Shown in pieces: positions 2,219 to 50,249 of a stretch of DNA of 53,810 nucleotides (position 1 is the stretch's first letter; each line of letters starts with the position of its first letter). Source of the stretch: Chiloscyllium plagiosum (lineage: Eukaryota). A program made the position numbers and the translations under genes. The notes under the pieces are model-generated. The model ran no database searches, was not told the DNA's origin, and saw only the letters and a program-made list of their open reading frames with translations. The stretch covers positions 97,467,644 through 97,521,453 of the forward strand of contig NC_057718.1 of the NCBI RefSeq assembly GCF_004010195.1, read 5' to 3'.

Positions 2219-2343
2219 GAAAGTGGGTACTGCAGATGCTGGAGATTAGAGTCAAGATTAGAGTGGTGCTGGAAAAGCACAGCAGGTCAGGCAGCATCCG
2301 AGGAGCAGGAGAATCGACATTTTGGCCAAAGCCTTACATCAGG
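2219..2343 (-). mobile_element. Penelope-type terminal repeat (family A) with hammerhead-like motif
   Basis: ctgcagatgctggaga...tgctggaaaagcacagcaggtcaggcagcatcc...catcagg, flanked by ttcttgt(a/g)ggga at 2209-2220 and 2344-2355. Confidence 0.75.
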
Positions 2344-2524
2344 TTCTTGTGGGGACCATTCCCTTGAAAAATCTGCACTTACACGAGAAATTAAAAGGGA
2401 ACCAATATTTAGTAAAGAGTTAAATAGCTAGTAGAATTCCAGGACACACAGTGATATACCAAAATGAAAGAATTAATTTCTCATTTCCAAATTGTTGGTT
2501 TCCTCCACAGATTATTGTTTAGAT

Positions 2525-3175
2525 TTAACAGCATGTTACCAGGACTGAGGAGGGTTTGAGTTACTAGGAGAGGCCAGCTAGGCTGGGATCTTTCTTCCTG
2601 GAATGCAAGAGACTGGGGGGGAACCTTATAGAGGTTTATAAAATTACGAGGGGCATGGATAGGGTAAGTAGCCCAGGTCTTTTTCCCAGGGTAGAGGAGT
2701 CCAAAACTAGGATTAAGGTGAGAGGGGAAAGATTTAAAATGGACCTGTGGGGTAACTTTTCACCCTGGGGGTAATGCATGTATGGAGTGAACTTCCAGAT
2801 GAAGTGGTGTAGACAGGCACAATTACAACATTTAAAAGTCAGAAGCCACATGACACCAAGTTATAGTCCAAAAAAATTATTTAAAATTACAAGCTTTCAG
2901 AGCACTGCTCCCTCACCTGACAAAGGGGCAGTGCTTCGAAAGCTTGTGATTTTAAATGACCCTTTCAGATGATAACCTGGTGTTCTGTGACTTCTGACTT
3001 TGTTCACCCCAGTCCAACATCTGCACCTCCACATTACAACATTTGGACAGGTACGTGGATAAGAAAGGTTTAGAGGGATATGGGCTGAATGCAGGCAAAT
3101 GGGACGGGTTCAGTTTGGAAACCTGGTTAGCAGGGATGAGTTGGGCCGAAGAACCTGTTGCCGTGCTGTACGACT
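2525..3175 (+). mobile_element. CR1 LINE 3' fragment interrupted by a Penelope-type fold-back
   Basis: Degenerate ORF2 C-terminus (…NLIEVYKITRGMDRV…) plus 3' UTR. Confidence 0.8.
2834..3032 (+). mobile_element. Penelope-type fold-back element (family B) nested in CR1
   Basis: Inverted arms aaagtcagaagccaca.../...tgtgacttctgacttt, hammerhead-like cacctgacaaaggggcagtgcttcgaaagcttgtg, direct repeat attacaacattt at 2822-2833 and 3033-3044. Confidence 0.75.
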
Positions 3176-4052
3176 GGATTTTGTATTACATTATTTCGAA
3201 ATAAAAACTCCTAAGGTGAGTGCATGGTGCCCTGTGTTAAACGGCAAGCTTTTTGGGCTGTGACTCTGATGTTACTGTGTAACCAGAGGTGAGGAGATTC
3301 TTATGATGGCATGTGGTCTTTTCTGTAATTTTGCTCACCCTGAGGATTGGATAGTCACACATCTGCAGTTAGTTTAGACCAGACTACCAAGGTCAAAAGG
3401 ACACTGAGTGCTGAAGACATGAACATGAGTCATTGTATTGACCATGGATAGTCCACACCTAAATGTCAGATGTTCTCTTGCTTTGGAAATAATTTCTTGA
3501 ACACCTCATCTTTACATTCCTCCTTTCAAATTCAGAAGCCATGAGCTTGCATACAGACTGCTGTCGTTATCCATCCATTACAGGTCAGAGTTGAGTGGGA
3601 AGGATGAGTGAACTCAAGTGACTTTTGTTTTAGAACCTTTGGTGTGTTAGGTTGAGCAGTGTTACCCAATCATTTTCCTGCTCTAACCCCATTTTGAGGC
3701 TTGAACATTGTTGTGATCCTCCCACCATCCCCAGTGAAACTTGAGAGTGCGGGATTTAAGGATTGCAGGACAGGGAGTTGTTATAACTCAGTCAGAGATC
3801 CCCAGAGGCCATTACTGTCCCAGACCTCTGTTTGGATTTTGGACCAAACGTTGAGAAGGGCCTGGTGTGATCTCCCCTCGGTTCAGTAAATGGACGATGA
3901 TAGACTTGGTGAAACAGTCCTTTGTTAAATGGGTTGGGTCGGTCACAGGGATTTTTCTTTTCCTCTGCTATTGTTTTTGATGCAATTAAATGCATTGTAA
4001 GAATGTTTTAACTTCAAGTGTCACAGGTGTTGTCATTCCTTCCTCTGTGCAG

Positions 4053-4128
4053 CATTTTCCGGATGTTTTCTGCTGATCGGAAACGTGTAGAAACTGCGTT
4101 AGATGCGTGTGGTCTTCCATCTGGCAGG
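4053..4128 (+). CDS. PLCB1: PLCB1-like internal coding exon, 76 nt
   Basis: Pyrimidine tract plus cag ending at 4052, donor gtaagc at 4129. AA+C completes Asn, then [25 protein letters not shown]. Confidence 0.93.
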
Positions 4129-4184
4129 GTAAGCACCTTCAGCCCTTACACCTCATTCTGAGCCAATTCTGCACGTGCATTGTA

Positions 4185-5060
4185 AGAGATAGGAGCAGGT
4201 CATTCAGCCCCTCAAGCCTGATGATGGCTGAACTGATTGTTGCCTCAACTCCCCTTTGCCTATCTCTTTAACTCCCTTTAAGTCAAGATTCTGTCTGTGT
4301 CTGCATAAAAACATATTCAATGACCCTTCCTCCAGCGCTGTCTGGGGAAGAGACTTCCAAAGACTCTTGACCCTCACAGAAAAAAATTCCTCATCTCCAT
4401 CTTAAATTGAAGAACCATTATTTTCAAAGTCTACCCCTCAGTATAGTCTCTCCAATGAGGATAAATATCTGTACACCCTGTCAACAGCCCTTGGAATCTT
4501 ATATGTTTCAATAAGATGGCCTTTCATCCTTCTAAACTCCATTTGATACAGACTCAATTTCTCTGTAGCATCAGAGGCTGAGGGGTGACCTGATGGAGGT
4601 TTATAAGATCATGAAGGGCATGGATAGGGTAAATAGACAAGGTATTTTTTTCCCAGGGTAGTGGAGTCCAAAACGATAGGGCACGGTTTTAAGGTGAGAG
4701 GGGAAAGATTTAAAAGGGACCTCAGGGGTAACTTTTTCACGCAGAGGGTGGTGCGTGTATGGAATGAGTTGCCAGAGGATGTGGTGGGGGCTGGTACAGT
4801 TACAACATTTAAAAGGCATCTGGATGGCTAGATGAATAGGAAGGGTTTAGAGGGATATGGACCAAATGCTGGCAAATGGGACTAGATTAGGTTCGGATAT
4901 CTGGTTGGTGCAGATGATTTGTACAGAAGCGCCTGGATCAGTGATGTATGAATATGACTCTCCAAACCCTTCATCCCAGGAATCAGTCAAGTGAACTTTC
5001 TCTGAACTGCTTCTAGTGCAATTAAGTACTTTCTTAAATAATGAGACCGAAATATTCCAC
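4185..5060 (-). mobile_element. CR1 LINE fragment (minus) with a nested plus-strand CR1 3' end at about 4565-4960
   Basis: Minus CR1 tail (ggagcaggtcattcagcccctcaagcctg) resumes at about 4965. The inner copy reads aggctgaggggtgacctgatggaggtttataagatcatgaagggcatggatagg. Confidence 0.75.
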
Positions 5061-5239
5061 TGACACATACAATTAAATACCTATTTCTTTGTTCCAGCTA
5101 GCTACAAAACAGAATTCAGTAAGATCCTTATTATCTCTTCAGAAATATTCTAATGCAATCAGTCACTTTCTAAATAAAACACCCCCACACCATTGTTTAA
5201 AAAAAATCTCAGTTCTCCCCACCTCCCAGTGTTAATAGC

Positions 5240-5930
5240 GAATACAGGAAGAGGTCATTCAGCCCCTTGAACCTATTTCACCATTCAATGAGATCATGGC
5301 TGATATGTGACCTAACTCCATGCCTTTTGCCCATACATCCCTTAACAACTTTGCTTAACACATCCATCTCCGATTTAAAATTAACAACTGACCCAGCACC
5401 CGCTGCCACTTGTGGAAGAGAGTCCCAAACCTCTCCCACCCTTTGTGTGTAGAAGTGCTTCCTCACATCTCTCCTGAACAGGGGCATTTCCTGATGAAGA
5501 GCTTATGCCCAAAATATGGATTCTCCTGCTCCTTAGATGCTGCCTGACCTGCTGTGCTTTTGCAGCACCACACTCTCCACTCCCATCGCTCCTGAACAGT
5601 CTGGCCCTAATTCTCAGACTATGCCCCCTAGTTCTCGAATCCCCAACCAATGGAAATAGTTTATCTACCCTGCCTTTTCCTGTTAATATCGTGTGAAGAC
5701 TTCAATCAGATCATCCATTAACCTTGTGAATTCTAGAGAAAACAGACTAATTTGTCTAATGTCTCTTTATAATTTAGCCCCTGACGTCCAGATATCATTC
5801 TTGTAAATCTATGTCATGCTCCCTCCAAGACCAATACATCCTTCCTAAGGTCTGATGTCCAGGTCTACTCACGGTCTCCAAGTGGGATCGAACCAGAGTT
5901 TTGGATAACTGCATCGTAGCTTCTGCCTTC
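5240..5930 (-). mobile_element. CR1 LINE fragment with nested Penelope-type repeat (about 5481-5583)
   Basis: Minus-strand ORFs MVGDSRTRGHSLRIR and DVRKHFYTQRVGEVWDSLP are CR1 ORF2 C-terminus. The insert is flanked by catc(t/g)ctcctgaacag on both sides. Confidence 0.8.
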
Positions 5931-7068: not shown

Positions 7069-7299
7069 TCCGTCTTTTTCCACTTGAAGCCCTCGCCAAC
7101 TGGTTGGGGCAATAGGAAGTGTTTGAAAGGTGAGGGGAAGTTTTACAATACTGGTAAAAGGAAGACTTGCAGGGACCTGTGCAGGTTGTGTTTGATTCAG
7201 GTCATTCCGCAGGAGACTGGAAGATACAGATGGCACGTCTGATTTACATTCATTCCTGGGAGATGGTGTCACGCAGCAAGGTTTGGTATCTCTTCACTG

Positions 7300-7395
7300 T
7301 CAAAAAGTGTGGCACTGGAAAAGCACAGCAGGTCAGCCAGCATCCAAGGAGTAACAGAGTCGACATTTCGGGCATAAGCCCTTCATAAGGAATGT
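7300..7395 (-). mobile_element. Penelope-type terminal repeat (family A)
   Basis: ggaaaagcacagcaggtcagccagcatcc...gtcgacatttcgggcataagcccttcataagga. Confidence 0.7.
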
Positions 7396-7552
7396 GAATT
7401 CTTCACAATCCCTCGTTACATTTGACCGTTGTTGAACTGTTGCAGGATCTGTGTTGAAGTTTCTGTTGGGTAGATCACCTACAGGCTTTTGGCTGAGTGA
7501 GGTTGAAGGAAAAGGGAAACAAAGACGGAAAGTGCTGGAAAAACGCAGCAGG

Positions 7553-7889
7553 CCCGGTCGGCTCAGTTGGCTGGATGGCTGGCTTGCAATCCGGAATAAT
7601 ACGAAAAGCTTGGGTTCAAATCAGAAACGACTGAGAAAACTCAACAAGTCTGTGGAGGGAAAGCAGAGCAAACATTTCAGGTCTGGGTTCGGTGACCCTT
7701 CTTCAGAAGTAATAGTAGTTAGAGAAAGGTCAGTATGTGTGCGAAAGATGGGTCGCTGGGCCTGAAACATTTGCTCCGCTTTCTCTCCACAGACTTGTTG
7801 AGTTTTCTCAGCCATTTCTGATTTGAACCCAATGTTTTCGTATTACTCTGTATTGCAAGCCAGCCATCCAGCCAACTGAGCTGACCGGG
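7553..7889. repeat. Long inverted repeat (about 128-bp arms): tRNA-like SINE head fused to family C Penelope repeat
   Basis: 7553-7681 is the approximate reverse complement of 7761-7889. Confidence 0.85.
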
Positions 7890-7894
7890 ACTGA

Positions 7895-8685
7895 AGACAA
7901 CGAATGCTGGAGATCACTGTGGGTCAGACAGCATCCACGGAGAGAGAGCAGGCTAACGTTTTGAGTCTAAATGGCTCTTCATCAGAGCTGATTGAACTGG
8001 GGAAGGGATAGGGTTCATGCGATCGTGAGGGGAGGGTGGAGGGTTGGGGGAGAAAAGGGTGTTGTTAGTACAGGATAAGTGATCGGAATGTGACAGTGGC
8101 AGAACAGTAGTGTGTCGAATTGTCAGGCTGGGAAAGACAGCTAATCCCCTGGAGTGGGGGAGGGTGGGAGAGAGGACATGGTGACAGAGAATGTAAGAAG
8201 TCAAGCTAAAAGAAAGGGAAGAAGTGGGAGTGGGTTCACAATCTGAAGGTGCTGAACTCAAAATAGAGGAACCTCGATTATCTGAAGGACACGGGCGGGG
8301 AGTATTTCTTTCAGTTAATCAAATGCTGGATAATCGATGCCGGCTTAGCCACGTATCAGGACCTTGCAATCTTGTTCGGATCATCCGAAATTTGGTTAAT
8401 CACATGCCGGATAATTGAGGTTCCTCTGTATTAAATCCAAAAGGTGATAAAGTGCCCAGTCTGAAGATAAGACATTGTCCCTCCAGTTTACGCTGTGATT
8501 GGCTGAAGCACTGCAGCATGCCGAGGACAGACAAGTGGCCGTGTCAGTCGGATATAACCAGCTACAGGAAAGTCAGGGTCTTGCGTGTGTTCTGCAAAGC
8601 GGTCACCCAGTCTGTGTTTGGTTTCTCCAATGTAGAGTAGGCCACACTGGGTGCAGCAAATAGATTGCACAAGACTGGGGGGAGG
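7895..8685 (-). mobile_element. Penelope-like retroelement 3' fragment: GIY-YIG endonuclease remnant plus terminal repeat (family D)
   Basis: ORF 8488-8670(-) CCTQCGLLYIGETKHRLGDRFAEH is the PLE GIY-YIG motif. Hammerhead-like gctctgatgaagagccatttagactcaaaacgttagc on minus at 7952-7988. Confidence 0.85.
8264..8428. mobile_element. MITE, Tigger/pogo-like (Tc1-mariner), nested in the PLE
   Basis: TIRs tagaggaacctcgattatc / gataattgaggttcctctg, followed by TA at 8429-8430. Internal subterminal repeats. Confidence 0.7.
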
Positions 8686-9417
8686 GGGCTAACCAGTGCC
8701 ACTGTATTGTGTACTCCTTACTGAACTAGGGAGTTCATCACCTATATGGGGATAGAGTGGGGCTATGAGGCATAGATTGTGATGGTGCACCGCTATTGAT
8801 CTGTTTAGCATGAAGGTGTGAGACCTCAGGCAGAAGGCCTTCAGTCACTGTTGAATCCATCCAGGCCACTTGCACCTAACTGTGTCAATGGGGCAGCACT
8901 TCCACCATGCTGGTGGAGGGCTGTATGATTCTGTGAATGTACCTGTAGCTGTAGCTGACTAGTCTGTGAGGCAACTATCCAAACATTTGACATCAGTTCC
9001 TAAGCAATAGTGATAGGGACTTTGTACCGTCAACCTGATCATATTCTGATTTGAAATCTGTTCCTCAACTGAGTGGTCCATTATGGTTTCACTCGTAACT
9101 CTTTTATCGTTCAGTAAAGAGTAAATTGGAGCAGAATGGAACTGGAGTCACTTGTAGGCCAGAGTGTGGAAGGAAGGCTAATTGCCTACTTGTAAGGGCA
9201 TTTGGAACCTTGAGCAGCAATTCCAAAGCTTCCTGGTGGTAATTTGTTACTTCAAGGGAAGAACATTGCAGGAATCTGAACAACGTAGACGAAATTTCTG
9301 GCAGGATGGGATAAGAAGTCCAGTGAAGCCCACCTCCATGCTGGGAACATCTCCAAACACCTTTCGAGAAGTGACGTGGTGAGTTGCCAATTAAGGGGAA
9401 TCACTGCTTATTAAAGA

Positions 9418-10714: not shown

Positions 10715-11035
10715 AGGTGGTTGTGATGAAGGAGCGGCGCTCCGAAAGCCAGTGCTTCCAATTAAACCACTTGGACTATAACCTGGTGTTGTGTGATTTT
10801 TATCTCTGTGTGAAGTTTGCATGTTCTCCACGTGTCTGCGTGGGTTTCCTCCCAAAATCCAAAGATGTGCAGGTTGGGCTGGACTGGCCAAGCTGAATTG
10901 TCTGTAGTGTCCAGGAATTTGTTGGTTAGATGGATTAGCCATGGGAAATGCAGGGATACAGTAGGATGCTCTTCAGAAGGTTGGTGTGGATTTGTTGGGC
11001 TGAATGGCCTGTTTCCACACTGTAGGAATTCTCTG
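10715..11035 (+). mobile_element. Family B Penelope repeat (10715-10800) joined to a headless HE1 SINE (10805-11035)
   Basis: gatgaaggagcggcgctccgaaagccagtg, then the V-SINE core and tail. Confidence 0.75.
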
Positions 11036-11052
11036 AAACTGTTTATAATTGT

Positions 11053-11614: not shown

Positions 11615-12155
11615 TAGTATCCCTACAGGCCATTTGGCCCAACATGTCTACACCTATCCTCCGAAGAGTAACCTACCCAGACCCATTCCTGTATTACTCT
11701 ACATTTACCCCTGACTACTGAACCTAACCTACACATCCCTGAACACAATGGGCACTTTAGCATGGCCAATTCACCAAACCTGCACAAGTTTGGACTTGGG
11801 GAAGAAGCCAGAGCATCCGGAAGAAAACCTCACAGACACAGGGAGAATGTGCAAACTTCACAGAGATATGATGTGGAGGAGCCGGTGTTGGACTGGGGTG
11901 GACAAAGTTCAAAATCACATGACACCAGGTTTAGTCCAACAGGTTTATTTGGAAGACCTTATGATCTTAAACTCCACAACCACCTGATGAAGGAGCAGCG
12001 CTCAGAAAGCTAGTGCTTCCAAATAAACCTGTTGGACTATAACCTGGTGTTGTGTGATTCTTAATTTTGTCCAAACAGACAGTTGCCCGGGGTAGAATAA
12101 AACCTGGGTCCCTGGTGCTGTGAGGCAGCATTGCTAACCACTGAGCCATTGTGGC
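11615..12155 (-). mobile_element. HE1 SINE interrupted by a family B Penelope fold-back (about 11866-12073)
   Basis: SINE continues on both sides of the insert. The insert has inverted arms and cacctgatgaaggagcagcgctcagaaagctagtg at 11981-12015. Confidence 0.85.
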
Positions 12156-12185
12156 GTGCATCAAGGACAATGACCCAGTCTCACC

Positions 12186-12347
12186 TCAGGTCAGGCAGCA
12201 TCCAAGGAATAGGAAAATCGACGTTTTGGGCAAAAGCCCTTCATCCTTTCCTGATGCCCAAAACATCCTCCGATGCTGCCTGATCTGCTGTGCTTTTCCA
12301 GCCACCAGTCTCGACACTGATCTCCAGCAGCTGCAGTCTTCACTTTC
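12186..12347 (+). mobile_element. Family A Penelope fold-back insertion
   Basis: 13-bp direct repeat acccagtctcacc at 12173-12185 and 12348-12360. Confidence 0.8.
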
Positions 12348-13138
12348 ACCCAGTCTCACCCCACTGAAACCAACCATTTCCTGTCTGACCAGCAGTCTTG
12401 GTAGCTCACCTCTATTTGACTCCCAGCAAACTTACATGTCTTTGACTTCCAGCTTCATCCTGTGAGTTTATGCAGTTTGTAGTTCGCTCTTTGTATTTAC
12501 CAGTTCCCAGTTTTGTACCAAAATGGTAAGCTGATCAACACCTGTGCTTTTAAACCTCAAAGGTTTGATTCCAGCCCCCAATTTACATGAAAGACAGACC
12601 AACAAAAAATAACAATTAAGGTATAAATAAAGAAACTGGCTGGCTTAGTTAAATAGCTTTGGCAATGCTTTGTTTCACTGGCATAAATGTGGACTCCTTG
12701 GCTGCTTTTCAGAAACATTGATCAGGGTCCCCTCAGTTTATTCAGCTAACGACAGCAATACTTCTTACTTGGTTTTCCTCTCTCTGGGCTTCCAGAAGCT
12801 GGTATCTGCAGGGAGCCTTCAAATCTTTGTGCTGTCTCAGAAGTAGCCCAGGAAACATAGTTCAAAATATAACTTCGATCCACCCTGATAGACTGATCAA
12901 CTCTGCCGAGGCCTCATTACCTTTAAACAACTATAACCTGTATGTACATAGGTCTCTTTCAGATTTGCCAGAACCAATTCCCAGGCTCTGACCTTGTTAA
13001 CAGCCAACTCCTGCGCTCTCTTTAAACACAGCGGTCTTCCCAGGGATTTGCTGTGTCTGTTAAAACCTTTTCAATCAAGATTCAGCCTGCAATTAGCTTC
13101 CCGGCCTGACCTCAGAAACAAATAAAGTTTATGTGGTT

Positions 13139-13240
13139 TGTTCTGAGGAATGGTCACTGGACCCAAAAAGTTAACTCTGATTTCTCTCCACAGATGCTGC
13201 CAGACCTGCTGAGCTTTTCTAGCAACGTCTGGTTTGGTCT
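13139..13240 (+). mobile_element. Family C Penelope terminal repeat
   Basis: gttctgaggaatggtcactggacccaaaaagttaactctg...gatgctgccagacctgctgag. Confidence 0.7.
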
Positions 13241-13456: not shown

Positions 13457-13985
13457 TTTAGAGATGTTTTAACATACCTCTGAATCAGGTGGGACTTGGA
13501 CCCAGGGTTCCTGGCTCAGAGGTAGGGCCACTACCACTGCACAAAAAGAGGCCTTTTCTTATTTAGCTTCTTGAAATTAACAATGAAGAGCTTCTGCCCG
13601 AAACGCCGACTCTCCTGCTCCTCGGATGCTGCCTGACCTGCTGTGCTTTTCCAGCACCACCCCTTTCAACTCGGACTATCCAGCATCTGCAGTCCTCACT
13701 TTCTCCTCCTTGAAATTAATACCCTTGGCTTGTTTCGTTGGTGCAGATTTGACATGAAGACTACACAACCCATTTTTAGTGTTACAGAGGATGCAGCTTA
13801 TAGCAATATCTGGTGAAGGATAAATGTTGAACAGCACCTTTCACTCAACCTCTCAATTGTGAGGGCCTTATAGATACATTCCCAATCAGCCTGTTCAGAG
13901 ATAAGTCACCCTGTGGAGCAGATGGGACTTGATCCAAAGCCTCTGGGCTCAGAGGTTGGAACACTACCATTGTACCACAACAGAG
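13457..13985 (-). mobile_element. Two short tRNA-derived SINE heads (13457-13550, 13895-13985) with a family A Penelope insert between them (13581-13708)
   Basis: Both heads read gggacttg..cc...ggctcagagg....cactacca.tg.ac. The insert is flanked by cttgaaattaa at 13570-13580 and 13709-13719. Confidence 0.7.
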
Positions 13986-14306: not shown

Positions 14307-14600
14307 TGCCACGGTGGCTCAGGGGTTAGCACTGCAGCCTCACAGCGCCAGGGTCCCAGGTTCGATTCTGGCCTCGGGTGACTGTCTGTGTGGAGTTTGC
14401 ACATTCTTCCCCTGTCTGTGTGGGTTTCCTCCGGGCGCTCCGGTTTCCTCCCACAGTCCAAAGATGTGCAGGTTAGGTGAATCGGCCATACTAAACTGCC
14501 CTTAGCGTTGGGTGCATTAGTCAGAGGGGAAATGGGTATGGGTGGATTATTCTTCGGAGGGTCAGTGTGGACTGGTTGGGCCCCACAATGTAGGGAATCT
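14307..14600 (+). mobile_element. HE1 V-SINE
   Basis: Near full-length, with intact A/B boxes (ggttcgattc). Confidence 0.88.
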
Positions 14601-14960: not shown

Positions 14961-15659
14961 GCTAATACTGTGCTGTGCTTCTCCTTTGCGTTGCATCTGT
15001 CTGGTTTTATCTGGTTTCCAGTGCACTGTATTCCTCCCACGTTCCAATTACACGTTTCTCTTACAAAAACAGCAGCTGAAGGACTATGACGCGAGAAAGC
15101 TAATGCACCACTCATGTCATTCTAATTGTTAGAGGATGGTTTGTTTACAAAACCTTTACACTGCATCTCACACAAAACACAATGAAAGTAGTTCAGAAAG
15201 TAGGTGCTCGACTGTGTGCACTTTCATGTCGCATTCTGCAAACAGTGGCATGTATTTTTTTAAAAAAAACTATCTTCTTGCAGGATTTCTAACTTTAAGG
15301 TATGTAGAATTACCGCACTTTCTATGTACGGACCTGACAAAGTTAAAACATTGAGCATGTTTGTGATCCATTCTGGTGATCAATTATCACATGAGTGTTT
15401 GCAAAGACGAGGTCAACTATAATCTGTTGTTTGAGGACGCTCTGCACATGTGAGGTAGTAAAGCAGAAGTTTCAATAAAGATTTCCCACGTAATGAAAGA
15501 AAACAGAAGAGCTAAGCTAAACTAAAACAAAGAATAGTGGATGTTGAAGATCTGAAACCAGTCAGAGGTCTGTGGAGAAACCCAGCAGGTCTCCCTGCAA
15601 GGAGAGAAACAGAGTTAATATTTCCAGTTCAGAACAGAATCTAAGCTTCCTGATCCTAA

Positions 15660-15992
15660 GGCCAGCACAGTGGCTCAGTGGTTAGCACTGCTGCCTCACA
15701 GTGGCAGGGAGCCGGGTTCAATTCTATCCTTAGGCAACTGTCTGTGTGGAGATTGTACATTTCCTCCGGGTGTTCCGGCTTCCTCCCACAATCCAAAAGA
15801 TGTGCAGGTTAGGTGTGTTAGTTGTGCCAAATTGCATATCATCCAGGGATATGCAGGTTAGGTAGATTAGCATGGGAAATGCAGGGTTACAAAGATGGAG
15901 TAAGGGTTTGGGTCTGGGTGAGATGCTCTTTGGAAGGTTAGTGTGGACCTGATGAGCCAAATGGCCTAGCTTCCACAGTATAGGGATTCTCT
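15660..15992 (+). mobile_element. HE1 V-SINE, preceded by a family C repeat at about 15535-15635
   Basis: Head, core and tail are recognisable. Confidence 0.85.
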
Positions 15993-35598: not shown

Positions 35599-35699
35599 AA
35601 TGACTCCATTCCACAAGAAAATTTCACAACTGAAGTATTCCAAGCTTTCTTGAATAGCATCTGTCCTCGGCCTGAACTTGACGTCATTTTCTCGGAATA
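35599..35699 (+). CDS. PLCB1: PLCB1-like internal coding exon, 101 nt
   Basis: Acceptor ctctag ending at 35598, donor gtaagc at 35700. Phase 0, encodes [33 protein letters not shown]+TA, close to recalled PLCB1 NDSIPQEDFTPEVY...CPRPEID. Confidence 0.93.
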
Positions 35700-36574: not shown

Positions 36575-37473
36575 ATAGTCAGTAAGTTTGCAGATGACAC
36601 CAAAATTGGAGGTGTAGTGGACAGCGAAGAAGGTTACCTCAGATTACAACGGGATCTTGATCAGATGGGCCAATGGGCTGAGAAGTGGCAGATGGAGTTT
36701 AATTTAGATAAATGTGAGATGCTGCATTTAGCAGGACTTATACACTAATAGTAAGGTCCTGGGAGTGTTGCTGAACAAAGAGACCTTGGAGTGCAGGTTC
36801 ATAGCTCCTTAAAAGTTAGAGTCACAGGTAGATAGGATAGTGAAGAAGGCATTTAGTATGCTTTCCTTTATTGGTCAGAATATTGAGTACAGGAGTCGGG
36901 AGGTCATGTTGGTGCATGACATTGGTTAGGCCACTTTTTGGAATATTGCATGTAATTATGGTCTCCTTCCTATCAGAAGAATGTTGTGAAACTTGAAAGG
37001 GTTCAAAAAAGATTTACAAAGATGTTGCCAGGGTTGGGGGAATTCAGCTACAGGGAGAGGCTGAACAGGCTGGGGCTGTTTTCCCTGGAGTGTCGGAGGC
37101 TGAGGGGTGACCTTATAGAGATCTATAAAATCATGAGGGGCATGGATAGGATAAATAGAAAAAGTCTCTTACCTGGGGTCAGGGAGTCCAGAACTAGAGG
37201 GCATAGGTTTAGGGTGAGAGGGGAAAGATATAAAAAGGACCTAAGGGGCAACTATTTCACATAGAGGGTGGTGCGTATATGGAATGAGCTGCCAGAGGAA
37301 GTGATGGAGGCTGGTACTTTACAACATTTAAAAGGCATCTGGATGGGTATATGAATAGGACGGGTTTGGAGGGATATGGGCCTGGTGCTGGCAGGTGGGA
37401 CGAGATTGCATTGGGATAATTGGTCAGCTTGGACCCAAGGGTCTGTTTCCGTGCTGTACATCTCTATAACTCT
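36575..37473 (+). mobile_element. CR1 LINE 3' portion
   Basis: SKFADDTKIGGVVDSEEGYLRLQRDLDQ and LERVQKRFTKMLPG...RGDLIEIYKIMRG. Confidence 0.92.
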
Positions 37474-38489
37474 AATAAACGGATGTTCTGCCTTTCAATG
37501 CTGCTGTGCTATTCATTATGATAATCGTTCATTGTCTAAAGGCCTGTTCTTGCCTTTCGTGCATATCCTTTGATCCCTTTCACCCTAAGTTCTATATCCA
37601 TCACGTTTTTGAAAGTATAGATACTCGATTCCAGATATTTGTTGAATTAAAATCCACCATCTGCCATGCTAGGATTTGAACCTGAGTCCCCAGAACTTTA
37701 TGTGAGTTTTTCAATTAACAGTCTAGTAATAATTACACTTGGCCATTATCTTGTTCGCCCTCAGCTGCTGTTATGACGTTGATCAGGTTTACTAAACTGT
37801 AGCAAATATATCTTCCCAGTGCCAGACCTGTTTGAATCATAAATTTATTGCTTGCAAAGACAACACTGCTGGTAACCATTGAGAATCTTCCTTTCTCCTG
37901 CATTATCGAAAAGGATAGCTTCCAGCACGATGAACTGTCTCGGAGCTAATTGACGACGTATTCAATGAGTGGGCAGCTTTTCTATGTTCAGATTTAACAT
38001 CAGTAACCCATTAGCAGTACTCTGATTTTGTAGTGGTACTGACAGCCAAAGTGTCAGAGGACACTCTCAGTCCTTGATTGAACCTGACAGTAACTTCTGG
38101 TATGTGCACGCAAACAGAATAAGGCAGTAACCCAGAAGCTATTACCTATGGTTCTCCAAATAGGTATAGTGTTTAAGAATTCCTCAGCACCGCCTTCCCC
38201 ACTCCCGTTCCCAACACCCACTCCCTCTTCCCCCAACCCCTTCATGTCAGGTCTCAAACAATGGGAAACCTTTGGCCTGATGAATACTTCCATTCCTAAT
38301 GCTGACCGCCTCACTGTTAAACCCCTTGGAAAAATACTACTTCCTCACTGAGGTGAAACTTGGTTTATAGTGGTGAACAAACTTCATGATTGCCGCCAAA
38401 CAACTCACTTGTCCTGTCAACCAAATGTGGAGTATCGAATTTTCCCATTTTAATAAATAAATATTCACAGTCTTCAAATGAAGTGATTA

Positions 38490-38590
38490 CATCTGACAAA
38501 GGGACAGCGCTCCGAAAGCTTGTGATTTCAAATAAACCTGTTAGGCTATAACCTGGCGGCGTGTGACTTGTGACCTTGTCCACCCCTGTC
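38490..38590 (+). mobile_element. Family B Penelope repeat
   Basis: ctgacaaagggacagcgctccgaaagcttgtgatttcaaataaacctgtt. Confidence 0.7.
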
Positions 38591-39636: not shown

Positions 39637-39845
39637 AGTCATAGAGTCATAGAGATGTACATCATGGAAACAGACCCTTCGGTCCAACCCGTCCATGCTG
39701 ACCAAATATCCCAACTCAATCTAGTCCCACCTGCCCCAGGGAAAAGACTTTGCCTATTTACCCTATCCATGCCCCTCATAATTTTGTAAACCTCTATAAG
39801 GTCACCCCTCAGCCTCCGACGCTCCAGGGAAAACAGCCCCAGCCT
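39637..39845 (-). mobile_element. CR1 3' end with internal deletion
   Basis: (agtcatag)n tail, gaaacagacccttcggtccaac, ggtcacccctcagcctccgacgctccagggaaaacagcc. Confidence 0.8.
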
Positions 39846-40424
39846 GCAGTTGAATTAAAAAAAAACTTTTAATGATCTCATAGAGACTGCATGTAAGCAC
39901 ACTTGATAATACACTATCATTTATGACCCAAGTTAATCATCTCAAGTGGTGAATCTGATGTTAAAAATAATCAGTACACTGGCATCAAGGGTAGCTAATC
40001 CTTTAATGGCCTCTTAAATCTGCCATTCAATATGCCTATTTTCATTTTGTTGTGACAAAAACGAGATGGAGTCAAGCGTGCCATCACCAGAGGTCGCCCT
40101 GCTGACCTTTAGAAACAGAGCCAAGCATTCAGCTATAATAACAAATGTTAGGAAATATTAACAATGGAATTGCAAAACCAAATGGTTGGTGTTTCTTTCC
40201 AGGCTGCAGCAGATTGTTAATCAGTGTATTCCAGGAGCACTGCTCATTTTCTTTAATCTAAATGGTGGCTGCAGACTGATTTTTTTTTCAATGAAGAGTG
40301 TATTTTATTTCGAGTGTATTTTATTTTATTTATTACTTAAAACAGATTTCATATCTGCCCTTTGCAAATAGTTATGCCACCTTCATAAAATTATGATTCC
40401 TATATTTTGGGTTGAGGCTTTTGA

Positions 40425-40722: not shown

Positions 40723-43099
40723 CCCAGAGGGGCTGTTTGAACTCAGCACCCATTTCAAATGACCCAACAGACTTGTGTTTCATGCCTGGGAGGTTCATAT
40801 CCCGCTCCTGTCCCCTGCTGGCAAAAGTGAGACTGCTGGAGCTGCAAGTGGACTTGCCACATTGAGGTCCTAGCTCCTTTTTTGAATGGTCCACTGTGTC
40901 AACTCAACTTGGAGATAAACCAGGCCAACATATCATTTCATTGCTGCCAACGTCCACATTGTTTCCTCTCCATTACTCAACGCATTTGGGGTTTTCAACT
41001 TTGCCAATGCTTGCGATTTATTTGCATGCCTGGACTTCTAAAGAATTGCATTTACTCATGACTCATGCAGAACAATTTAGATGTTATTTTCTTGAAAAAT
41101 CCAATAACAAAAGTAAGCAAGAAAGTAAATTCTCAAGATGTGAGTCATGAGAGATCTCTGACTGTTTCCTCATTAATGGCAGTGCATTAAATGTGTCAAC
41201 GTTCTGAGAATCTAGTCAAACATATTGATCTGTAATGTATGATTAGTCAGGTTTGTTGAAGCTCTGGGTCTCAAGCTCTGATATTATCAGAGGTTGTCAG
41301 CACAAAGGTTGGGAAAGGTGTCCCCAAGCTACCCAAGATATTTCACCCAATTCCAACTAAACCTGTTGGACTATCACCTGGTGTCATGTGACTTCTGACT
41401 TTGTCCGAAGTTGTGATACATTTCCGGAAGCACAATGCTCTTGGAAAAGGCAAACTTTGGAGAAGAGGAAGCAACTGAGATGTACGGTGTACCACTCTCA
41501 GGCAGACCAAGAAACAGATACTGGTGCTGGAGTGCATCAGTTGACAGGCCATCTTAGGAAGAAGGTGTTTGCCATCTCTTCTTGCAATTCCACCGTTAAT
41601 TTTCCCAGGGTTTGTTGTTAGAGCTGAGCCCATCATGAATATTTAGTTGAATACCAGGAGGTGTACACTTATCAGCTGGGAGCTGTAAAGGCATTTTGAT
41701 TGATAAATTTAATAGGTTATTAGAGGATGAGCTGTCTCTGATGTGGTTAATGGAGTAGATGTTTATTTTTGTCATTGTATTGTTTTATAATTCTGTACAA
41801 GGGAGAAGTTGTGTAGGTCCCAACCCAGGATTTAGCTAACAAAGCTAATTGTTTCCATAGCTCTGAACATTCTTGAACAGTAATCTAGTCATTTTCTGTT
41901 CTCCCTAAAAGTGAATTAACTATTCAGGCAACATGATGCCATTGTATTATTTTGGTGTGTTGTTACAGGCAGGGCACTGTCTGCCTTAAATATGGAAATG
42001 TGAGCACATTGTCTACTAAAAATGTTGCTTCCATTACTACTAGAGTTTAATTCTTCCATGAACATATGCGAGGCATAATGCCACTTATTGACACGCTGGT
42101 TAAGAATGCATTTGCAATACGGTTTCTGATCGTTTATGTCGGCATTTTGTTTTCATGTGAATTTTAAGATACCTTAAAACCAACACAAAACTGGAGAGTG
42201 GGATCAAGGTGCTTCATAATTTGATGTTCAGCCAATTTTGTGCCTACACTTAATGAAACCTGGTGTTATGATGGAAATAAAATATGCAATCAAAAAGAAA
42301 TGTTCATTAAGAATGATGGAACCACAGGTTAGTCACTGACTCATGTCTGTGCAGTTTCAAAGGATCAAAATGACTCTTCCTCCCTCTCATTGATTCAGTC
42401 TCTACGCTGTATCACAGTCCAGAGTCAATCCCCATTGGGAAGGTTACTGATTGTAATGGATTGACAAAGCCGACGAGCAATTTCCATCTCTCAGCCCTTA
42501 TTTAAATTGCCATAAGCTTCATTTTTCAACCCCGCTCTCACTTGTAAGCATAATGCAGTCATTAAAAGCAGCAGACACCTCTGACAAATTGTTTAGCTGT
42601 GTCCTCGGTCAGAGAATAAATGAAACATCATCCGGCCTGTGTAAAATGGATCCAACAGTATTAAAATGTATCCTGGGATAAGGGGATGGCACAGGAGTAT
42701 GATGTTGAAGTAGATCAACCATGGAATCATAGAATAGAGAAGCTCCTGCAGGCTACTTAGCCTACCACACCCCTACTTCCTAGTTCTGAAGAAGGATCAT
42801 TGACCCAAACCATTGATTCTGCTTTCTTTCTCCATAGATGATGCCAGACTTGCTGAGTTTCTCCAGCAAATTCTGTTTTTGTTTCTGAATCACTCGCCAT
42901 TGTTGACATCTTTAGCTTTGTACCTGCTCGGGTCCTCTATTCTGTGGTCAAATTGAATAACAACAACTTACATTCATGGAACACTGAAAACAGAGTAGGG
43001 AAGTCCGAAAGCACCCGACAGGAGCATTGTCAAACTGAATTTGACACCATGAAGACATTAGGACCGGTAATCAGAGGTTTGACCAAAGGGAGAGGGTTT

Positions 43100-45314: not shown

Positions 45315-45630
45315 TGGGAGACATGGTGGCTCAGTGGTTAGCACTGCTGCCTCACAGTGCCAGGGATCCGGGTTCGATTCCAGCCTTAGGCGACTGTGGT
45401 TGGCGTTTGCACGTTCTCCCCGTGTCTGCGTGGGTTTCCTCTGGGTGCTCCGGTTTCCTCCCACAGTCCAAAGGTGTGCAGGTCAGGTGAATTGGCCATG
45501 CTAAATTGCCCATAGTGTTAGATACATTAGTCAGAGGGAAAATGGTCTGGGTGGGTTACTCTTCGGAGGGTCAGTGTGGACTGGTTGGGCCGAAGGGCCA
45601 ATTTCCACACTGTAGGGAATCTAATCTAAT
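45315..45630 (+). mobile_element. HE1 V-SINE
   Basis: Full length with (tctaa)n tail. Confidence 0.9.
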
Positions 45631-47369
45631 ATGTATGATTAAAATTGAGCTCCTTGAGATTTCTGGCCTGCTTTCTTCTGTGTTGAAGATCCTTGACATT
45701 TCTTCAATGAACAGAATCTTAAAAGGTAGAGGCCATTTGGCCCATTGTACATGTGCTGGGTTTTTGAAAAAGCTATCTAATTAATTCCAATCTTCTGCTG
45801 TTTCTACAAAGCCTGACAAATTGTGCCTTTCCCATAATGTACATTACTTAGTACTTAATGAATTTGCGGCATGTTATTTTACAAATCACCAATGCTTCTA
45901 ACCTTTATTGTATTCGCTGATTTTCCCTGGATTTCCAACAACAAACTTTAGCGAGTGGCAAATGCCCTTTGACCATGGGTTTGTGACAGGGGGATTTTGG
46001 ATTATACCAATTGAAAGTAGTGCCTTCACAGTCAATGAAGTTTGGTTGAGGTACAGTTACCATTGTAGCATTGGAGACACAGCAACCAATTTATGCACAG
46101 CAAGCACCAAGTAACGACAGTGCGATAGTGACCAGATAATCCATTCTTTGGTGAAGATGTAGAGAGATAAACAGTTTCCAGTTTACTGTTAATTCAAGGA
46201 GTAGAGAGAACTTGACTCTGTATTCATCCCTGTGTTGGCCCTGCCCCAGAGGTGTTGTTTATGGGCAGCATCAAGGGAACTGCACCCTCTGTTAACTTCC
46301 CATCGAAAAAACAGAATGAGCTTTACTCGGTGCTTAATCCCTGTACTGGGAGTGTTTGATAGAGATGGTGTTGAGTCAGCTTTCCTTTTTTGTTTAAGAG
46401 AGGTTGAGGGATAAGTATTGGCCTGGACCCTCCGAAGAACGGCAGTCACAATCATGTTGCCACCTCTGCTCTTGTTATTTTTTGTCGTTAGGACAGAGTT
46501 CTACGTTTCTAGCCAAGAATTCCAATTCCAACACCTTTGGCAATTCGCAGCCTGGCTGAGATCAATCAGGTTAGGCCGTAATACAGGAAAGTTGGGTGGG
46601 AGGGGGGAGCTGGCGATACGAACCAGACTCTCTAAAGGCAGCAATCAGTGCACCGTTCTCCAAGATTGAAAGGTCCAGCATCAGGAAGAGAACCACTTTG
46701 ACGGCTGGGCTCAGGATGGTAATTGGTTCTGGGGTAAGGGTGTCAAGTCTAGTAAAAGGTTGTGTGCAAAGTGCCGGGGTGGGGGGGGAGGGGGGTATAG
46801 TATCAGAGGGCGACGGCAGGGATGGGAGTGGGCAGAGGTGTGGCGTATGCAGTGTCAGGTCTTTGTATAAGGTTGTGTGGAATCACATTGCCTTTGGGGA
46901 GGTTGCTGACCAGGAGTGGTTGTTAGGTCCGGATCCAGGCTGTGTTCAGGGTTAGGGGACATGTAAGTTGCACTGGGGTGAGTTGTGGGGTTAAGTTTAA
47001 CTGTTACCCAGGATTTAGCCTTGGCTTTTAATCCTCTAGCTTTTCCTGGGTAACTATTAGTTTGTCAGAAAGTGGGACTCTCCAATTCCTCAGATCTTGA
47101 TTGACTCTTTTGGAGGGTTCCAAATGCAGGGAAATTGCCCATTGGAACCATCAATGTCCTGGGAATTCTCGTAGAGTCAAGGATCTCACAGGATCTCAAC
47201 TGGCAACTCCAGTTTGTGCTGACCCGACAAGTGTCTGACCCTTGGAATATCGGACTATTGACCAGGACACAGGAGACAACTCCCTGCTCTTCTACACAGT
47301 ATGGATCATACAATTAAGGGCCTGGGCAGAGGTTGCTGTCCTTTGCTAACTGAGTGAGGCCCAATTCCC

Positions 47370-48070
47370 ATGGAAAAATGGTCACTCCCTCGTCAACTTC
47401 ACACTCCCCACCAGCTTCTCCACCACACCTGGTACCTTTCCCTGCAACCACAAGGAATGCAACACCTGTCCCTACCCTCCCCTCTCACCTCCATCCAAGG
47501 CCTCAAATAATCCTTCCAGGTCCAGCAGAGATTCACCTGCAATTCACCCAACCCTCATCTATTGTATCCACTGATCCCCATGTGGTCTTTTCTCTACTGG
47601 GGAGACCAAACACAGACTCAGGATTAGTTCACGGAGAACCTGCGCTCTGCATGCATCAACCAACCCAAGCTTCCAGGTGCTATCCATTTTAATTCCCCAT
47701 CCCACTCCCCAGCGACATATCCATCCTCCGCCTGCTCCACTGTCAGAGTGAGGCTAGATGTAAACTGGAGGAACAACATCTCATATTTCGCCTGGGGACC
47801 CTACAGCCCAATGGCCTCAATATTGACTTCACCAGCTTCAAAATCTCCCCATCCCCAGCCTAATCCCATGTCCAGCTCCTCCCCTCCTCCACCTTCCCAA
47901 CCTGACCTAACCTGCCCATCTTCCTACTCAGCTATCCCCTCCTCCCTTCCCACTCACCAATCACAATAACAACCTAGCTGCATCCACCTATCACCATCCT
48001 ACCGACCCTTCCCCCAACCCCAAAACCCCCCTCCCTCTGTATAATTCTGGGCTCCCCTCCCCCTCCCCAG
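47370..48070 (+). mobile_element. Penelope-like element 3' fragment (degenerate GIY-YIG region)
   Basis: acctttccctgcaac..tgcaacacctgtcc (CxxxxCxxC region), atctattgtatc...ggggagaccaaacacagactc (IYC...GETKHRL), gaggaacaacatctcatatttcgcctgggg (EEQHLIFRLG). Confidence 0.75.
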
Positions 48071-48074
48071 TCCT

Positions 48075-48380
48075 GACTAGGCTGGGGCTGTTTTCCCTGG
48101 AGTATCGAAGACTTAGGGGTGACTTTATAGAGGTCTATAAAATCATGAGGGGCTTGGATAGAGTAAATACCCAAGGAGGGTGGTGCATGTATGGAATGAG
48201 TTGCCAGAGGAGTGGTGGAGGCTGGTATAATTACAGCATTTAAAAGGCGTATGGATGAATAGGAAGGCTTTAGAGGGATATGGGCCAAGTGCTGGCAAAT
48301 GGGACTAGGATATCTGGTCGGCATGGATGAGCTCGACCAAAGGGTCTGTTTCCGTGCTGTACATCTTTATGACTCTATGA
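48075..48380 (+). mobile_element. CR1 3' end, followed by a family A repeat (48380-48480)
   Basis: CR1 tail ending tatgactctatga, running into aagggttttggcctgaaacgttgac. Confidence 0.75.
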
Positions 48381-48504
48381 TAAAGGGTTTTGGCCTGAAA
48401 CGTTGACTTTCCTGCTCCTTGGGTGCTGTCTGACTTGCTGTGCCTTTCTGAGCTCCACATCTGTTGACCCCGGGATCTGTTGCACACACCCTGCCCCCTC
48501 AAAG

Positions 48505-48690
48505 AGAGACAGACAGGGCTTTATTGCTTCATCTGAAAGGCAGCTCTCCCAACGATTCAGCACTCTGTCGGTACTGCTCTGGAAGGTTAGCTGGGGTGTT
48601 TGTGCTTCAGTCCTCCCTGTGGAACTGCAAGTTCTGTGTGTGGGACTATTGACTCGGAGATGGGACTACAAGCAACCGGACCACAATTTG
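48505..48690 (-). mobile_element. Degenerate DeuSINE-like element
   Basis: tcatctgaaaggcagctctcc...cagcactc..tcggtactgc resembles the recalled Deu-domain SINE sequence. Confidence 0.45.
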
Positions 48691-48966
48691 GAATTCCCCA
48701 TGGTGGGAATTCCAAAAAACCGACTATGTAGTTCCCTCCTTAGTTAAAAGTCTCTGGCTGTCCCTTCTTGTGAGCAATGTCTTGTGTTGGGCAGCGAATG
48801 TTGTTTTTCTCAGTGACTGGGTGGGTGCTAGTGGAATTGAACTTGAAAAGGTGCAACTGGGTTGAACTCACAAAAGGAATATCCAATTGCACCTCATTTC
48901 AGAGTATTCCGTAGTTGTTCCAATCTGACTGTAATCTACCGGGCTTTATTCTGTCCCTTCTTTCAG

Positions 48967-49133
48967 TGGTGCAAAGGACATACCGTATCTAACGGTAGAC
49001 CAGATGACAGAGTTCATCAATTCCAAGCAGAGAGACCCGCGTTTGAACGAGATACTGTACCCTCCAGTGAAACCAGAACAAGTGCAACAGCTCATCGAGA
49101 AATACGAACCAAACGCCGCACATGCGAAGAGAG
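48967..49133 (+). CDS. PLCB1: PLCB1-like internal coding exon, 167 nt (EF-hand region)
   Basis: Acceptor cttctttcag ending at 48966, donor gttggt at 49134. TA+T gives Tyr, then [55 protein letters not shown]+G, containing the PLC-beta hallmark [12 protein letters not shown]. Confidence 0.95.
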
Positions 49134-49399
49134 GTTGGTTTAATTTTTGGTTTTTATTCACGTGATTGCCTGCTCATGACGCTGCACAAGGAAGGTGCTT
49201 TATTGGGGTTCCTGTATTGTCAATGGATAGACATTGCATGAGTGATGCAGACTTTGGAGATAATGTATATCAATGTATGCCAACAAACTGGCATCAAAAG
49301 ACTCTGATAATATCCCCAATCGTGAGAACAAAGCTAGGTTAGTTATTAACATCTTTGTTTTCTGTGATATACAAGGAACAATGTAAGATATTCTGCACC

Positions 49400-49606
49400 A
49401 AAAAGAGTGGTGCTGGAAAAGCACAGAAGGTCAGGCAGTATCCGAGGACCAGGAGAGTCAACGTCATCAGGAACATTCCTGATGAAGGGTTTATGCCTGA
49501 AACTTTGACTCTCCTGCTCCTCGGATACTGCCTGACCTGCTGTGCTTTTCCAGCGCCACTCTTTTCAACTCTGACTCTCCAGCATCTGCAGTCCTCACTT
49601 TCTCCA
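49400..49606 (+). mobile_element. Family A Penelope fold-back
   Basis: Inverted aagagtggtgctggaaaagcacag / ctgtgcttttccagcgccactctt. ctgatga at 49479-49485. Confidence 0.85.
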
Positions 49607-49757
49607 TGTAGGCCATTCAGCCCAATGAGTCCACTCCATAATTCTGAGAGATCATGGTTGATCTGATAACCCTCGGCCCCACTTTTCCCCATCACGTTTG
49701 ATTCCCTTACTGATGGAAGGTCTGGCTCTCTCAGCGTTGAATAAACCGGACTACCCA

Positions 49758-50249
49758 GGCAAAAGTAAGGACTGCAGATGCTGGAAATCACAGCCTAGAT
49801 TAGAGTGGTGCTGGAAAAGCACAGCAGGTCAGGTAGCATCGAGAAGCAGGAAAATCAACGTTTCGGGCAAAAGCCCTTCATCAGGAATGGAGGCAGGGAG
49901 CCTCCAGAGTGGAGGGATAAATGGGAGGGGGGTGGGGCTGGGGAGAAGGTAGCCAAGAGTACAATAGGTGGATGGAGGTGGGGATAAAGGTGATAGGTCA
50001 GAGAGGACATGGTTGAGGACATGGTTGAAGAGCTTCAGGGCAGAGGAGATGGCCTGGGAGTTGCAGGGAGAGAGAGACTCACTGAGATCTTTGTAGAGAG
50101 AGGAGGAAAACTTCTTCAAGGGAGGCATAATTGCAAGAGGATTCGCAGTAAGGTTAAAATCAACTCGGCAAAAGTGAGGACTGCAGATGCTGGAAATCAG
50201 AGTCTAGATTAGAGTGGTGCTGGAAAAGCTTTTCCAGCACCACTCTAAT
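49758..50249 (-). mobile_element. Internally deleted Penelope-like element with two direct terminal repeats and a terminal palindrome
   Basis: ggcaaaagt(a/g)aggactgcagatgctggaaatca at 49758 and 50167. Palindrome at 50208-50249. actacccag occurs near both flanks. Confidence 0.75.

Follow-up and report, generated by a model that had tools for sequence, protein, structure and literature searches.

Minimal hammerhead ribozymes are already known as motifs of Penelope-like elements (PLEs). As described in the founding paper (Cervera and de la Pena 2014, PMC4209133), they combine CUGANGA, a nucleotide after A9, a G10.1–C11.1 pair and GAAA with a palindromic 15.1–16.1, UH and a short helix I. They form multiple families per genome, are mostly solitary, and include dual motifs on opposite strands, 100–700 bp apart. 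All of these features recur in the shark copies described here, and the layout of the Acropora Neptune and Nematostella rows in Fig. S3 of that paper is nearly identical to theirs. No chondrichthyan row is present in its Table S1 or Fig. S3, and among the papers listed by shark-directed literature searches none, judged by title and abstract opening, describes PLE minimal hammerheads in sharks.

For endonuclease-bearing (EN+) PLEs of the Neptune and Nematis kind, PMC8557442 and PMC3846280 describe 5' truncation, an adjacent inverted copy, a tail of 30–40 bp on one of the arms, partial tandems, target duplication, microhomology deletion, and a CX2-5CXXC linker ahead of GIY-YIG, each with a counterpart here. 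Compared with the unit described there, the shark copies are very short and dense, with duplications of 11–18 bp. PAc, a Poseidon element of Anolis (PMC11167929), resembles the shark copies in having two 3' ends ~30 nt apart with a hammerhead upstream, and in showing no RNA reads that end at the cut site; its ORF starts inside stem II, whereas the putative shark ATG lies ~40 nt past the tail. Non-LTR retrozymes, as outlined in a preprint (bioRxiv 10.64898/2026.07.22.740005), share the type I hammerhead and pLTR-derived sequence, but their head-to-tail two-hammerhead tandems are absent from the shark window.

Host gene and composition of the window

The window is a 53,810-nt stretch of the Chiloscyllium plagiosum genome (contig NC_057718.1, 97,467,644–97,521,453), and coordinates below refer to it. 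The span 2219–50249, which a preliminary description had taken for one intron, crosses four introns of a bamboo-shark-type PLCB1 gene. Four coding exons were located on the plus strand, at 1521–1574 (tblastn with P0003, 100% over 17 aa, AG/GT ends), 4053–4128 (tblastn, AG/GT ends), 35599–35699 (tblastn, 100% over 33 aa) and 48967–49133 (PDB PLC-beta matches, E 1e-18). The best named match of the last exon is Chiloscyllium PLCB1 (100%), and one contig spans exactly that exon and no more. Repeats and endonuclease remnants occupy 29 loci, or ~11% of the window. A Pfam search of 22 stop-to-stop frames gave significant matches to LINE RT pieces only, and ARAGORN found no tRNA in the window.

Architecture and decay of the hammerhead motifs

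All six stretches quoted in the preliminary description were found in the sequence at their positions, and the common architecture proposed for them, a minimal type I hammerhead, exceeds chance. A search with a relaxed type I descriptor yielded 10 matches with at most one core mismatch, compared with a mean of 0.33 and a maximum of 2 in 12 second-order Markov simulations; three of the 10 (20680+, 47093− and 19261−) are not hammerhead copies. The published descriptor, which requires a helix I of at least 3 bp, gave no matches in the window and none in 60 simulations. Its failure to find any copy is due to decay and to family A, which has a 2-bp helix I followed by a mismatch, as in the Drosophila and Culex rows of Fig. 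S3 of PMC4209133, and so fails the 3-bp requirement. An Rfam covariance-model scan (E up to 10) returned 15 matches, none to a hammerhead family; its miRNA matches are the fold-backs described below. None of eight copies adopted the hammerhead fold as a monomer.

The stems pair and covary, as had been proposed. Among 13 copies of families A, C and D, 85.7% of stem cells pair and both sides change in five of seven pairs, with a covariation score reached by none of 500 shuffles, although this score is inflated by relatedness (a warning of the tool) and most of the covarying changes distinguish one family from another. The motif-anchored table of 23 copies and the shuffle test agree that helices I and II covary, mostly across families; pairs I.1, I.2 and II.1–II.4 are kept in 19–21 of the 23, and pair I.3 in just 14. 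An A is present at 9.1 in every copy, and G-C or G-U at 10.1–11.1 in 20. The 15.1–16.1 palindrome is perfect in 14 copies, reading ACGU in A, C and D versus AGCU in B.

CUGANGA and GAAA are each intact in 14 of the 23 copies. Both boxes together with UH are retained in six, every one of family A or B. Most copies are decayed, and a reading of the motifs as intact was not confirmed. The C11.1–G12 step reads CG in eight, CA in eight, TG in five and otherwise in two, consistent with the CpG decay (GAAA to AAAA) suggested earlier; in this the copies differ from the min-HHRs of PMC4209133.

Relationships among the four families

The four families had been described as unrelated-looking. Over the 55 nt that follow the ribozyme, A, C and D align with one another (mean z 6.0–8.9, lowest 4.1), but B does not align with them (mean z −0.4 to 0.5). 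The families form two lineages, with A, C and D homologous past the ribozyme and only B unrelated. A covariance model built from A, C and D did not recover B at E up to 5, so the common architecture of B rests on the anchored table.

Of the 11 family A copies, the one quoted at 19148 alone has a 4-bp stem I, the majority having 2 bp followed by a U-U or U-C mismatch. G12 is missing from this copy and from the quoted examples of C and D, and the quoted B and C examples carry a mismatch at 10.1–11.1. The majority core of family A is intact, with C at H17 in most of the contig depth. GAAA is retained in one of four C copies and neither of two D copies, and we infer an intact hammerhead form for these two families. 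Neither the family A nor the family B pattern matched metagenome contigs; in viral contigs the B pattern likewise had no match, and a PLE protein query gave a single weak one.

Structure of the insertions

Thirteen insertions are head-to-head fold-backs, and 11 of these carry the PLE tail on one arm, a count obtained by correcting an automatic test by eye (wrong matches at 29774+, 36161− and 33964+); those lacking a tail lie at 7550–7890 and 36068–36190. Measured from C3, tail-bearing arms are 116–131 nt long and short arms mostly 86–93 nt. Target duplications of 11–18 bp flank 10 of 28 units (duplication score of at least 9), a score reached by just 1.25% of 400 random pairs. Inverted pLTRs, one-arm tails and target duplications occur in A, B and C units alike. 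For PLE insertions, PMC3846280 reports inverted pLTRs, tails and target duplications of 8–10 bp; several of those found here are longer.

Family A is represented on the minus strand by a pLTR end with tail, decayed hammerhead and 12-bp duplication (2217–2345) and a short copy with a mutated core (7294–7394), and on the plus strand by a tailless short copy that has lost G12 (5488–5586, 16-bp duplication) and a tailed copy starting inside the core (13576–13706, 14-bp duplication). Its fold-backs lie at 12183–12349 (tail on the plus arm, target duplication), 18275–18460 (minus arm extending 44 nt into the upstream pLTR, plus arm with tail only), 33870–34006 (tail piece on the plus arm, 14-bp duplication) and 49388–49605 (plus arm with tail, both boxes and a broken palindrome). 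In the fold-back at 18977–19282 (18-bp duplication), the plus arm (C3 19152, G12 lost) has ~105 nt of upstream sequence and a tail, and the minus arm starts near the cut site. A near-perfect fold-back at 20668–20881 (arms of 91 nt, 99%; 14-bp duplication) is centred in the core, its minus arm having both core boxes, a 2-bp stem I and a tail.

Family B comprises fold-backs at 2835–3030 (head-to-head, tail on the plus arm, 12-bp duplication), 11880–12075 (plus arm with C3 11984, both boxes and G-A at 10.1–11.1; tail on the minus arm) and 32432–32660 (plus arm with both boxes, a stem I mismatch and a tail), and plus-strand sequences at 10722–10809 (short copy), 38488–38590 (G8 lost) and 41350–41406 (fragment whose start lies just past the cut site). 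Family C comprises plus-strand copies without G12 (13138–13239 and 42780–42884), a minus-strand fragment (15562–15632), two minus-strand fragments without a hammerhead (24832–24891, C-like, and 27745–27799), a fold-back with the tail on the minus arm (29650–29871; C3 29774, G12 lost), a minus-strand copy with a short inverted core stub (36068–36190), and a C-like fold-back with a 77-nt tRNA/SINE-head-like piece on both arms (7549–7893). Family D has two minus-strand members, both without G12: a copy at 20161–20265, and a hammerhead (C3 7985) with pLTR end at 7891–7992, downstream of an endonuclease remnant.

Many copies begin at the front edge of the hammerhead rather than at the cut site. Judged by eye, nine of the 13 family A arms with core sequence start from about −10 to +3 of C3, and the other four reach 44 to ~700 nt upstream, one of them into an endonuclease. 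Such clustering of 5' ends at one point is not explained by random truncation.

Endonuclease remnants and the link to Penelope-like elements

The assignment of the motif to PLEs agrees with its architecture, which matches the consensus and Fig. S3 rows of PMC4209133. In addition, GIY-YIG remnants lie on the same strand as, and just upstream of, the hammerheads at 7985(−) of family D and 48073(+) of family A. The first, at 8230–8690 (−), is a frameshifted PLE endonuclease recognized by profile search (iE 1.6e-10 and 2.8e-5; Pfam GIY-YIG E 0.026, below the cut-off), with a MITE inserted at 8265–8428. The second, at 47386–47860 (+), is a frameshifted Neptune-type PLE 3' remnant with a CX4CX2C linker and the GIY-YIG endonuclease end (tblastn E 7e-24 with P0002; profile iE 3e-10 to 3e-6). 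Its CX2-5CXXC linker, at ~47430, is present in all 20 long relatives, of 21, that reach this region, and the relatives carry RVT_1 and DKG. The 3' pLTR of this remnant (47861–48485, +) contains a family A hammerhead from 48073, its core split by a LINE 3' fragment (about 48077–48378); the part downstream of the LINE matches the family A profile at E 3.3e-17.

A profile search found no RT remnant or full-length PLE in the window, which precludes tree-based clade placement. No ORF is attached to families B and C within the window. Family C would belong with PLEs through its homology to A and D, and B solely through its architecture.

The partial tandem PLE unit at 49759–50258 (−, 11-bp duplication) contains an inverted stub, a pLTR end with tail, a putative ORF start, a 3' untranslated part, a hammerhead that retains both core boxes (C3 at 49884) and a tail. 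The tail ends are ~408 nt apart, with only one hammerhead. The putative ORF starts with an ATG at 50128 and extends ~40 codons; it is the best match in the window to the PLE N-terminus profile, with a weak iE of 0.055 (next best 0.14). In two runs, contigs extend past the tail into this putative ORF start. A microhomology junction lies near 50003–50028, and this 500-bp unit, alone in the window, looks internally deleted; none of the 16 contig pieces listed spans the deletion junction.

Origin of the repeats

We consider it probable that the repeats are 5'-truncated insertions, that is pLTR ends, of endonuclease-bearing PLEs, of Neptune type for A, C and D, and that the hammerhead is a motif of their pLTR. 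Directly seen in the window are the hammerhead architecture, the endonuclease remnants upstream of A and D hammerheads, the inverted arms, tails and duplications, and the CpG decay. By analogy with published PLE biochemistry, the PLE protein would nick the target. Reverse transcription may then begin at two internal sites ~30 nt apart, giving the short end or the tail end; two start sites are reported in PMC11167929. Synthesis would mostly halt after 90–130 nt near the hammerhead front edge, and the outcome would often be a head-to-head pair. For cutting, the ribozyme of an active element probably needs either to dimerize via the 4-nt palindrome or to act with the protein of the element.

The preliminary description had instead proposed PLE-mobilised non-autonomous ribozyme elements; as separate mobile families, these are not established. 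Endonuclease remnants are joined to families A and D, only 49759–50258 looks internally deleted, and the inverted-plus-tail structure is the reported form of truncated autonomous PLEs. In a rival reading, which we regard as unlikely, the mobile unit is a ~120-nt non-autonomous RNA that spans the hammerhead front edge through the tail, has a 5' end of its own fixed by either a start site or a splice junction, and is copied in trans by PLE protein. The clustered 5' ends and the one apparent internal deletion are in its favor, and immediately ahead of the hammerhead summed contig depth drops ~12-fold, from 5.2 million to 0.42 million, but depth is no copy number and, at 85% likeness, the drop may stem from upstream sequence that is specific to subfamilies. 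A pyrimidine tract and an AG ending 2 nt before C3 occur in three of nine copies examined, and a D. virilis intron end maps to helix I; however, stem I requires the G of this AG in any case, and AT stands there in the three main-type A copies that have sequence upstream. The four family A arms that extend upstream also oppose it. Read ends did not pile up at the hammerhead in one RNA run, a weak test with a polyA single-cell library.

It is much less probable that the repeats are non-LTR retrozymes, in which tandem hammerhead repeats self-cleave, circularise and spread by rolling circle. The hammerhead class is the same, the preprint (bioRxiv 10.64898/2026.07.22.740005) reports retrozymes in one chondrichthyan and as PLE derivatives, and 49759–50258 is a partial tandem. 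That unit has a single hammerhead, however, no hammerhead tandem array is found among the 10 tandem repeats listed for the window, paired hammerheads are head-to-head on opposite strands, and the copies mostly retain the whole ribozyme at their 5' end rather than starting at the cut site.

Least credible is the implied role of some intronic copies as active ribozymes cutting or regulating PLCB1 pre-mRNA: although 13 of 23 motifs are sense and three sense copies have both core boxes (C3 at 11984, 32543 and 49479), strand bias is absent (p = 0.68), and each of the three is stem- or palindrome-defective. A distance of 20.5 kb separates the two whose palindromes match, and none of the eight folded copies forms a hammerhead alone. 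Minimal hammerheads do not cleave as monomers and cleave only at a low level as dimers, and the anole PLE ribozyme requires its protein (PMC11167929). No copy in the window looks fully intact; the copies are very probably decayed passengers that do not cut PLCB1 pre-mRNA, and an effect on PLCB1 is unlikely.

Significance

For the host gene PLCB1 the significance is small. With these copies the known range of PLE minimal hammerheads comes to include a shark, whereas the tables of the founding paper (PMC4209133) have no sharks, and the dense natural set of junctions bears on the inverted ends and tails of PLEs and on the purpose of the ribozyme. Only tentatively, and with rather low confidence, we suggest that in bamboo sharks the hammerhead front edge, not the cut site, sets the ends of PLE copies. 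Either a short RNA would start at stem I, at a start site or splice acceptor, as a very abundant ~120-nt non-autonomous element, or the folded ribozyme would halt reverse transcription and seed the fold-back. If the front-edge reading is true, the role of the motif as a structural landmark for transposition would outweigh its role as a cutter, which fits the reported dispensability of cleavage in vitro for the anole PLE element (PMC11167929).

Hammerhead repeats in the PLCB1 introns

The Chiloscyllium PLCB1 protein maps to four plus-strand exons with AG/GT ends (1521-1574, 4053-4128, 35599-35699 and 48967-49133), and the repeats therefore span four introns of a bamboo-shark-type PLCB1, not the single colonised intron of the preliminary description. 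Among protein structures, the frame at 48962-49129 matches those of PLC-beta (E 1e-18), and its closest named relative is Chiloscyllium PLCB1 (100%). CpG stands at 0.30 of expectation across the whole window, which is vertebrate DNA.

All of the example sequences quoted at the outset are present in the window. A relaxed hammerhead descriptor gave 10 matches there, whereas 12 simulated sequences averaged 0.33. Profiles of the four families of short repeats (A-D) detected 19 A, 9 B, 10 C and 2 D pieces, plus one separate A stub; the pieces fall into 29 loci, which together with the endonuclease remnants occupy ~11% of the window. Twenty-three pieces, in which the motif is complete from the core to stem I, were treated as anchored copies, and pieces that lacked the core, were split or were badly gapped were excluded. 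The anchored motifs are distributed over the four introns as 1, 17, 3 and 2.

The CUGANGA box is kept in 14 of the 23 anchored copies, as is the GAAA box (14/23); both core boxes and UH are kept in 6, and an extra A follows A9 in every one (23/23). The C11.1-G12 step is changed in 15 of these copies, in 13 of them by a CpG-type transition, which supports the CpG decay that had been proposed. The proposed stem covariation was also observed, since stem-closing pairs, next pairs and palindromes differ between families yet still pair. The closing pair of stem I is C-G in A and B and U-A in C and D, the second pair is U-A in A and C, A-U in B and C-G in D, with either ACGU or AGCU as the palindrome. 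No copy in the window passes a published hammerhead descriptor, an Rfam scan of the window returned no hammerhead match, and none of the 8 copies tested by monomer folding adopts the hammerhead alone.

The 55 nt behind the ribozyme are common to A, C and D (mean z 6.0-8.9); in the same comparison B does not match these three, and a covariance model built from A/C/D misses B. Four separate families had been claimed; A, C and D are homologous beyond the ribozyme, and only B stands apart. On sequence comparison, the repeats form two lineages, one of them with three subfamilies.

Other repeats are present in the window. A tRNA-derived-looking SINE family (repeat families D5, D6, D13 and D19) is abundant (50-145, 14310-14405, 15666-15761, 27113-27208, 30900-30995 and 45322-45417, plus inverted copies), and LINE ends have its 3' part in common with it. 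LINE RT fragments lie at 17100-18165, 36956-37434, 39707-39846 and 53052-53782, and the segment 17698-18165 matches Pfam RVT_1 (E 1e-13). A 33-bp minisatellite (51595-52932) reads open in several frames and crosses an assembly gap of ~500 N, and a 20-bp minisatellite (31577-32213, ~32 copies) has a unit like the dispersed repeat at 23062, 33533 and 37649.

Probable association with Penelope-like elements

A frameshifted, MITE-interrupted GIY-YIG endonuclease remnant (8690-8230, minus strand) lies upstream of the family D hammerhead at 7985(-). A second endonuclease remnant (47386-47860, plus strand) contains a CX4CX2C linker and has a pLTR, the end repeat of Penelope-like elements (PLEs), directly behind it; this pLTR holds a family A hammerhead at 48073, split by a LINE fragment. 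The window's own endonuclease piece reaches only E 0.026 against Pfam GIY-YIG; its protein relative P0001 attains the Pfam cut-off, and long relatives bear DKG, RT, linker and GIY-YIG. According to PMC8557442, linkers of the CX4CX2C type belong to the Neptune and Nematis clades. No RT remnant of the PLE kind was found within the window.

The ~1 kb upstream of the second remnant (46300-47350) is single-copy in the window and has no PLE-profile match. The MITE within the first (8265-8428, minus strand, ~165 bp) has terminal inverted repeats and a TA duplication, and no second copy was found in the window. The LINE 3' fragment at 48077-48378 (plus strand), which we take to be CR1-like, interrupts the CUGANGA core of a hammerhead.

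Structure of the insertions

The window contains 13 fold-back units, their arms inverted head to head, and in 11 of them the tail (extra 3' end sequence, 30-40 bp in PLEs) is on one arm only, as scored by an automatic test with three matches corrected by eye. Measured from C3 to the duplication, tail-bearing arms are 116-131 nt long (6 arms) and tailless arms 86-93 nt (4 arms), with a fifth, truncated arm of 59 nt. Target duplications of 11-18 bp with a score of at least 9 were found in 10 of 28 units, compared with 1.25% of random pairs. This anatomy agrees with the PLE insertion unit as presented in PMC3846280 and PMC8557442, and the two arm ends in the window correspond to the pair of internal sites at which reverse transcription of the anole element starts (PMC11167929).

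In reading order, the 500-bp partial-tandem family A insertion at 49759-50258 has a stub and a tail before a putative ORF start; beyond a microhomology junction come the 3' untranslated part, the hammerhead and a second tail. The putative ORF start is the best, weak match in the window to a PLE N-terminus profile (iE 0.055). Both inner parts are highly repeated in the contig alignment, and elsewhere in the contigs the tail runs on into the ORF start; none among the 16 contig pieces listed spans the junction.

In the fold-back at 7549-7893, both arms hold a 77-nt piece that is fused, in antisense, with a family C-like pLTR. By our reading, it contains A-box- and B-box-like motifs; ARAGORN found no tRNA in it, and no other copy was found in the window. 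This piece could have arisen by 3' transduction of a SINE head, or it could be a Pol III head from which antisense RNA of the pLTR is transcribed.

By eye, 9 of the 13 family A arms with core sequence start at ~-10 to +3 of C3 and 4 reach further upstream, and about three pieces, all families together, start near the cut site. Summed contig depth drops ~12-fold just upstream of the motif, a drop for which subfamily divergence could account. Of 9 copies examined, 3 have a pyrimidine tract and AG right next to stem I; on thin evidence, this arrangement resembles the D. virilis intron end, which maps to helix I (PMC2377424).

Possible role in PLCB1 and ribozyme class

Hammerhead orientation is unbiased with respect to PLCB1 (sense in 13/23, p = 0.68). 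Both boxes survive in three sense copies, each of which is flawed: one has a broken palindrome, another a mismatch at 10.1-11.1 and the third a mismatch in stem I. Paired hammerheads point in opposite directions and are unable to dimerise within a single transcript. In one RNA run, 3167 reads aligned, on both strands and just 233 at 99% or above, and no read-end pile-up was observed; as a polyA single-cell library, the run is a weak test of cleavage.

As described in PMC4209133, minimal hammerheads recurrently have a nucleotide between 9 and 10.1, a G10.1-C11.1 pair and a palindrome; coelacanth and Xenopus contain thousands of copies, mostly solitary and in several families, and cleavage is absent in monomers and low in dimers. 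For the anole element, PMC11167929 reports that protein is needed for cleavage and that cleavage is dispensable for insertion in vitro. Shark-directed searches of partly accessible literature, with subscription papers, Repbase/Dfam and preprint supplements outside their scope, listed no paper whose title or abstract opening describes these motifs. The repeats are real and well explained. Judged by its sequence, the window motif is the minimal hammerhead motif of PMC4209133, in line with the Penelope-type minimal hammerhead originally proposed.
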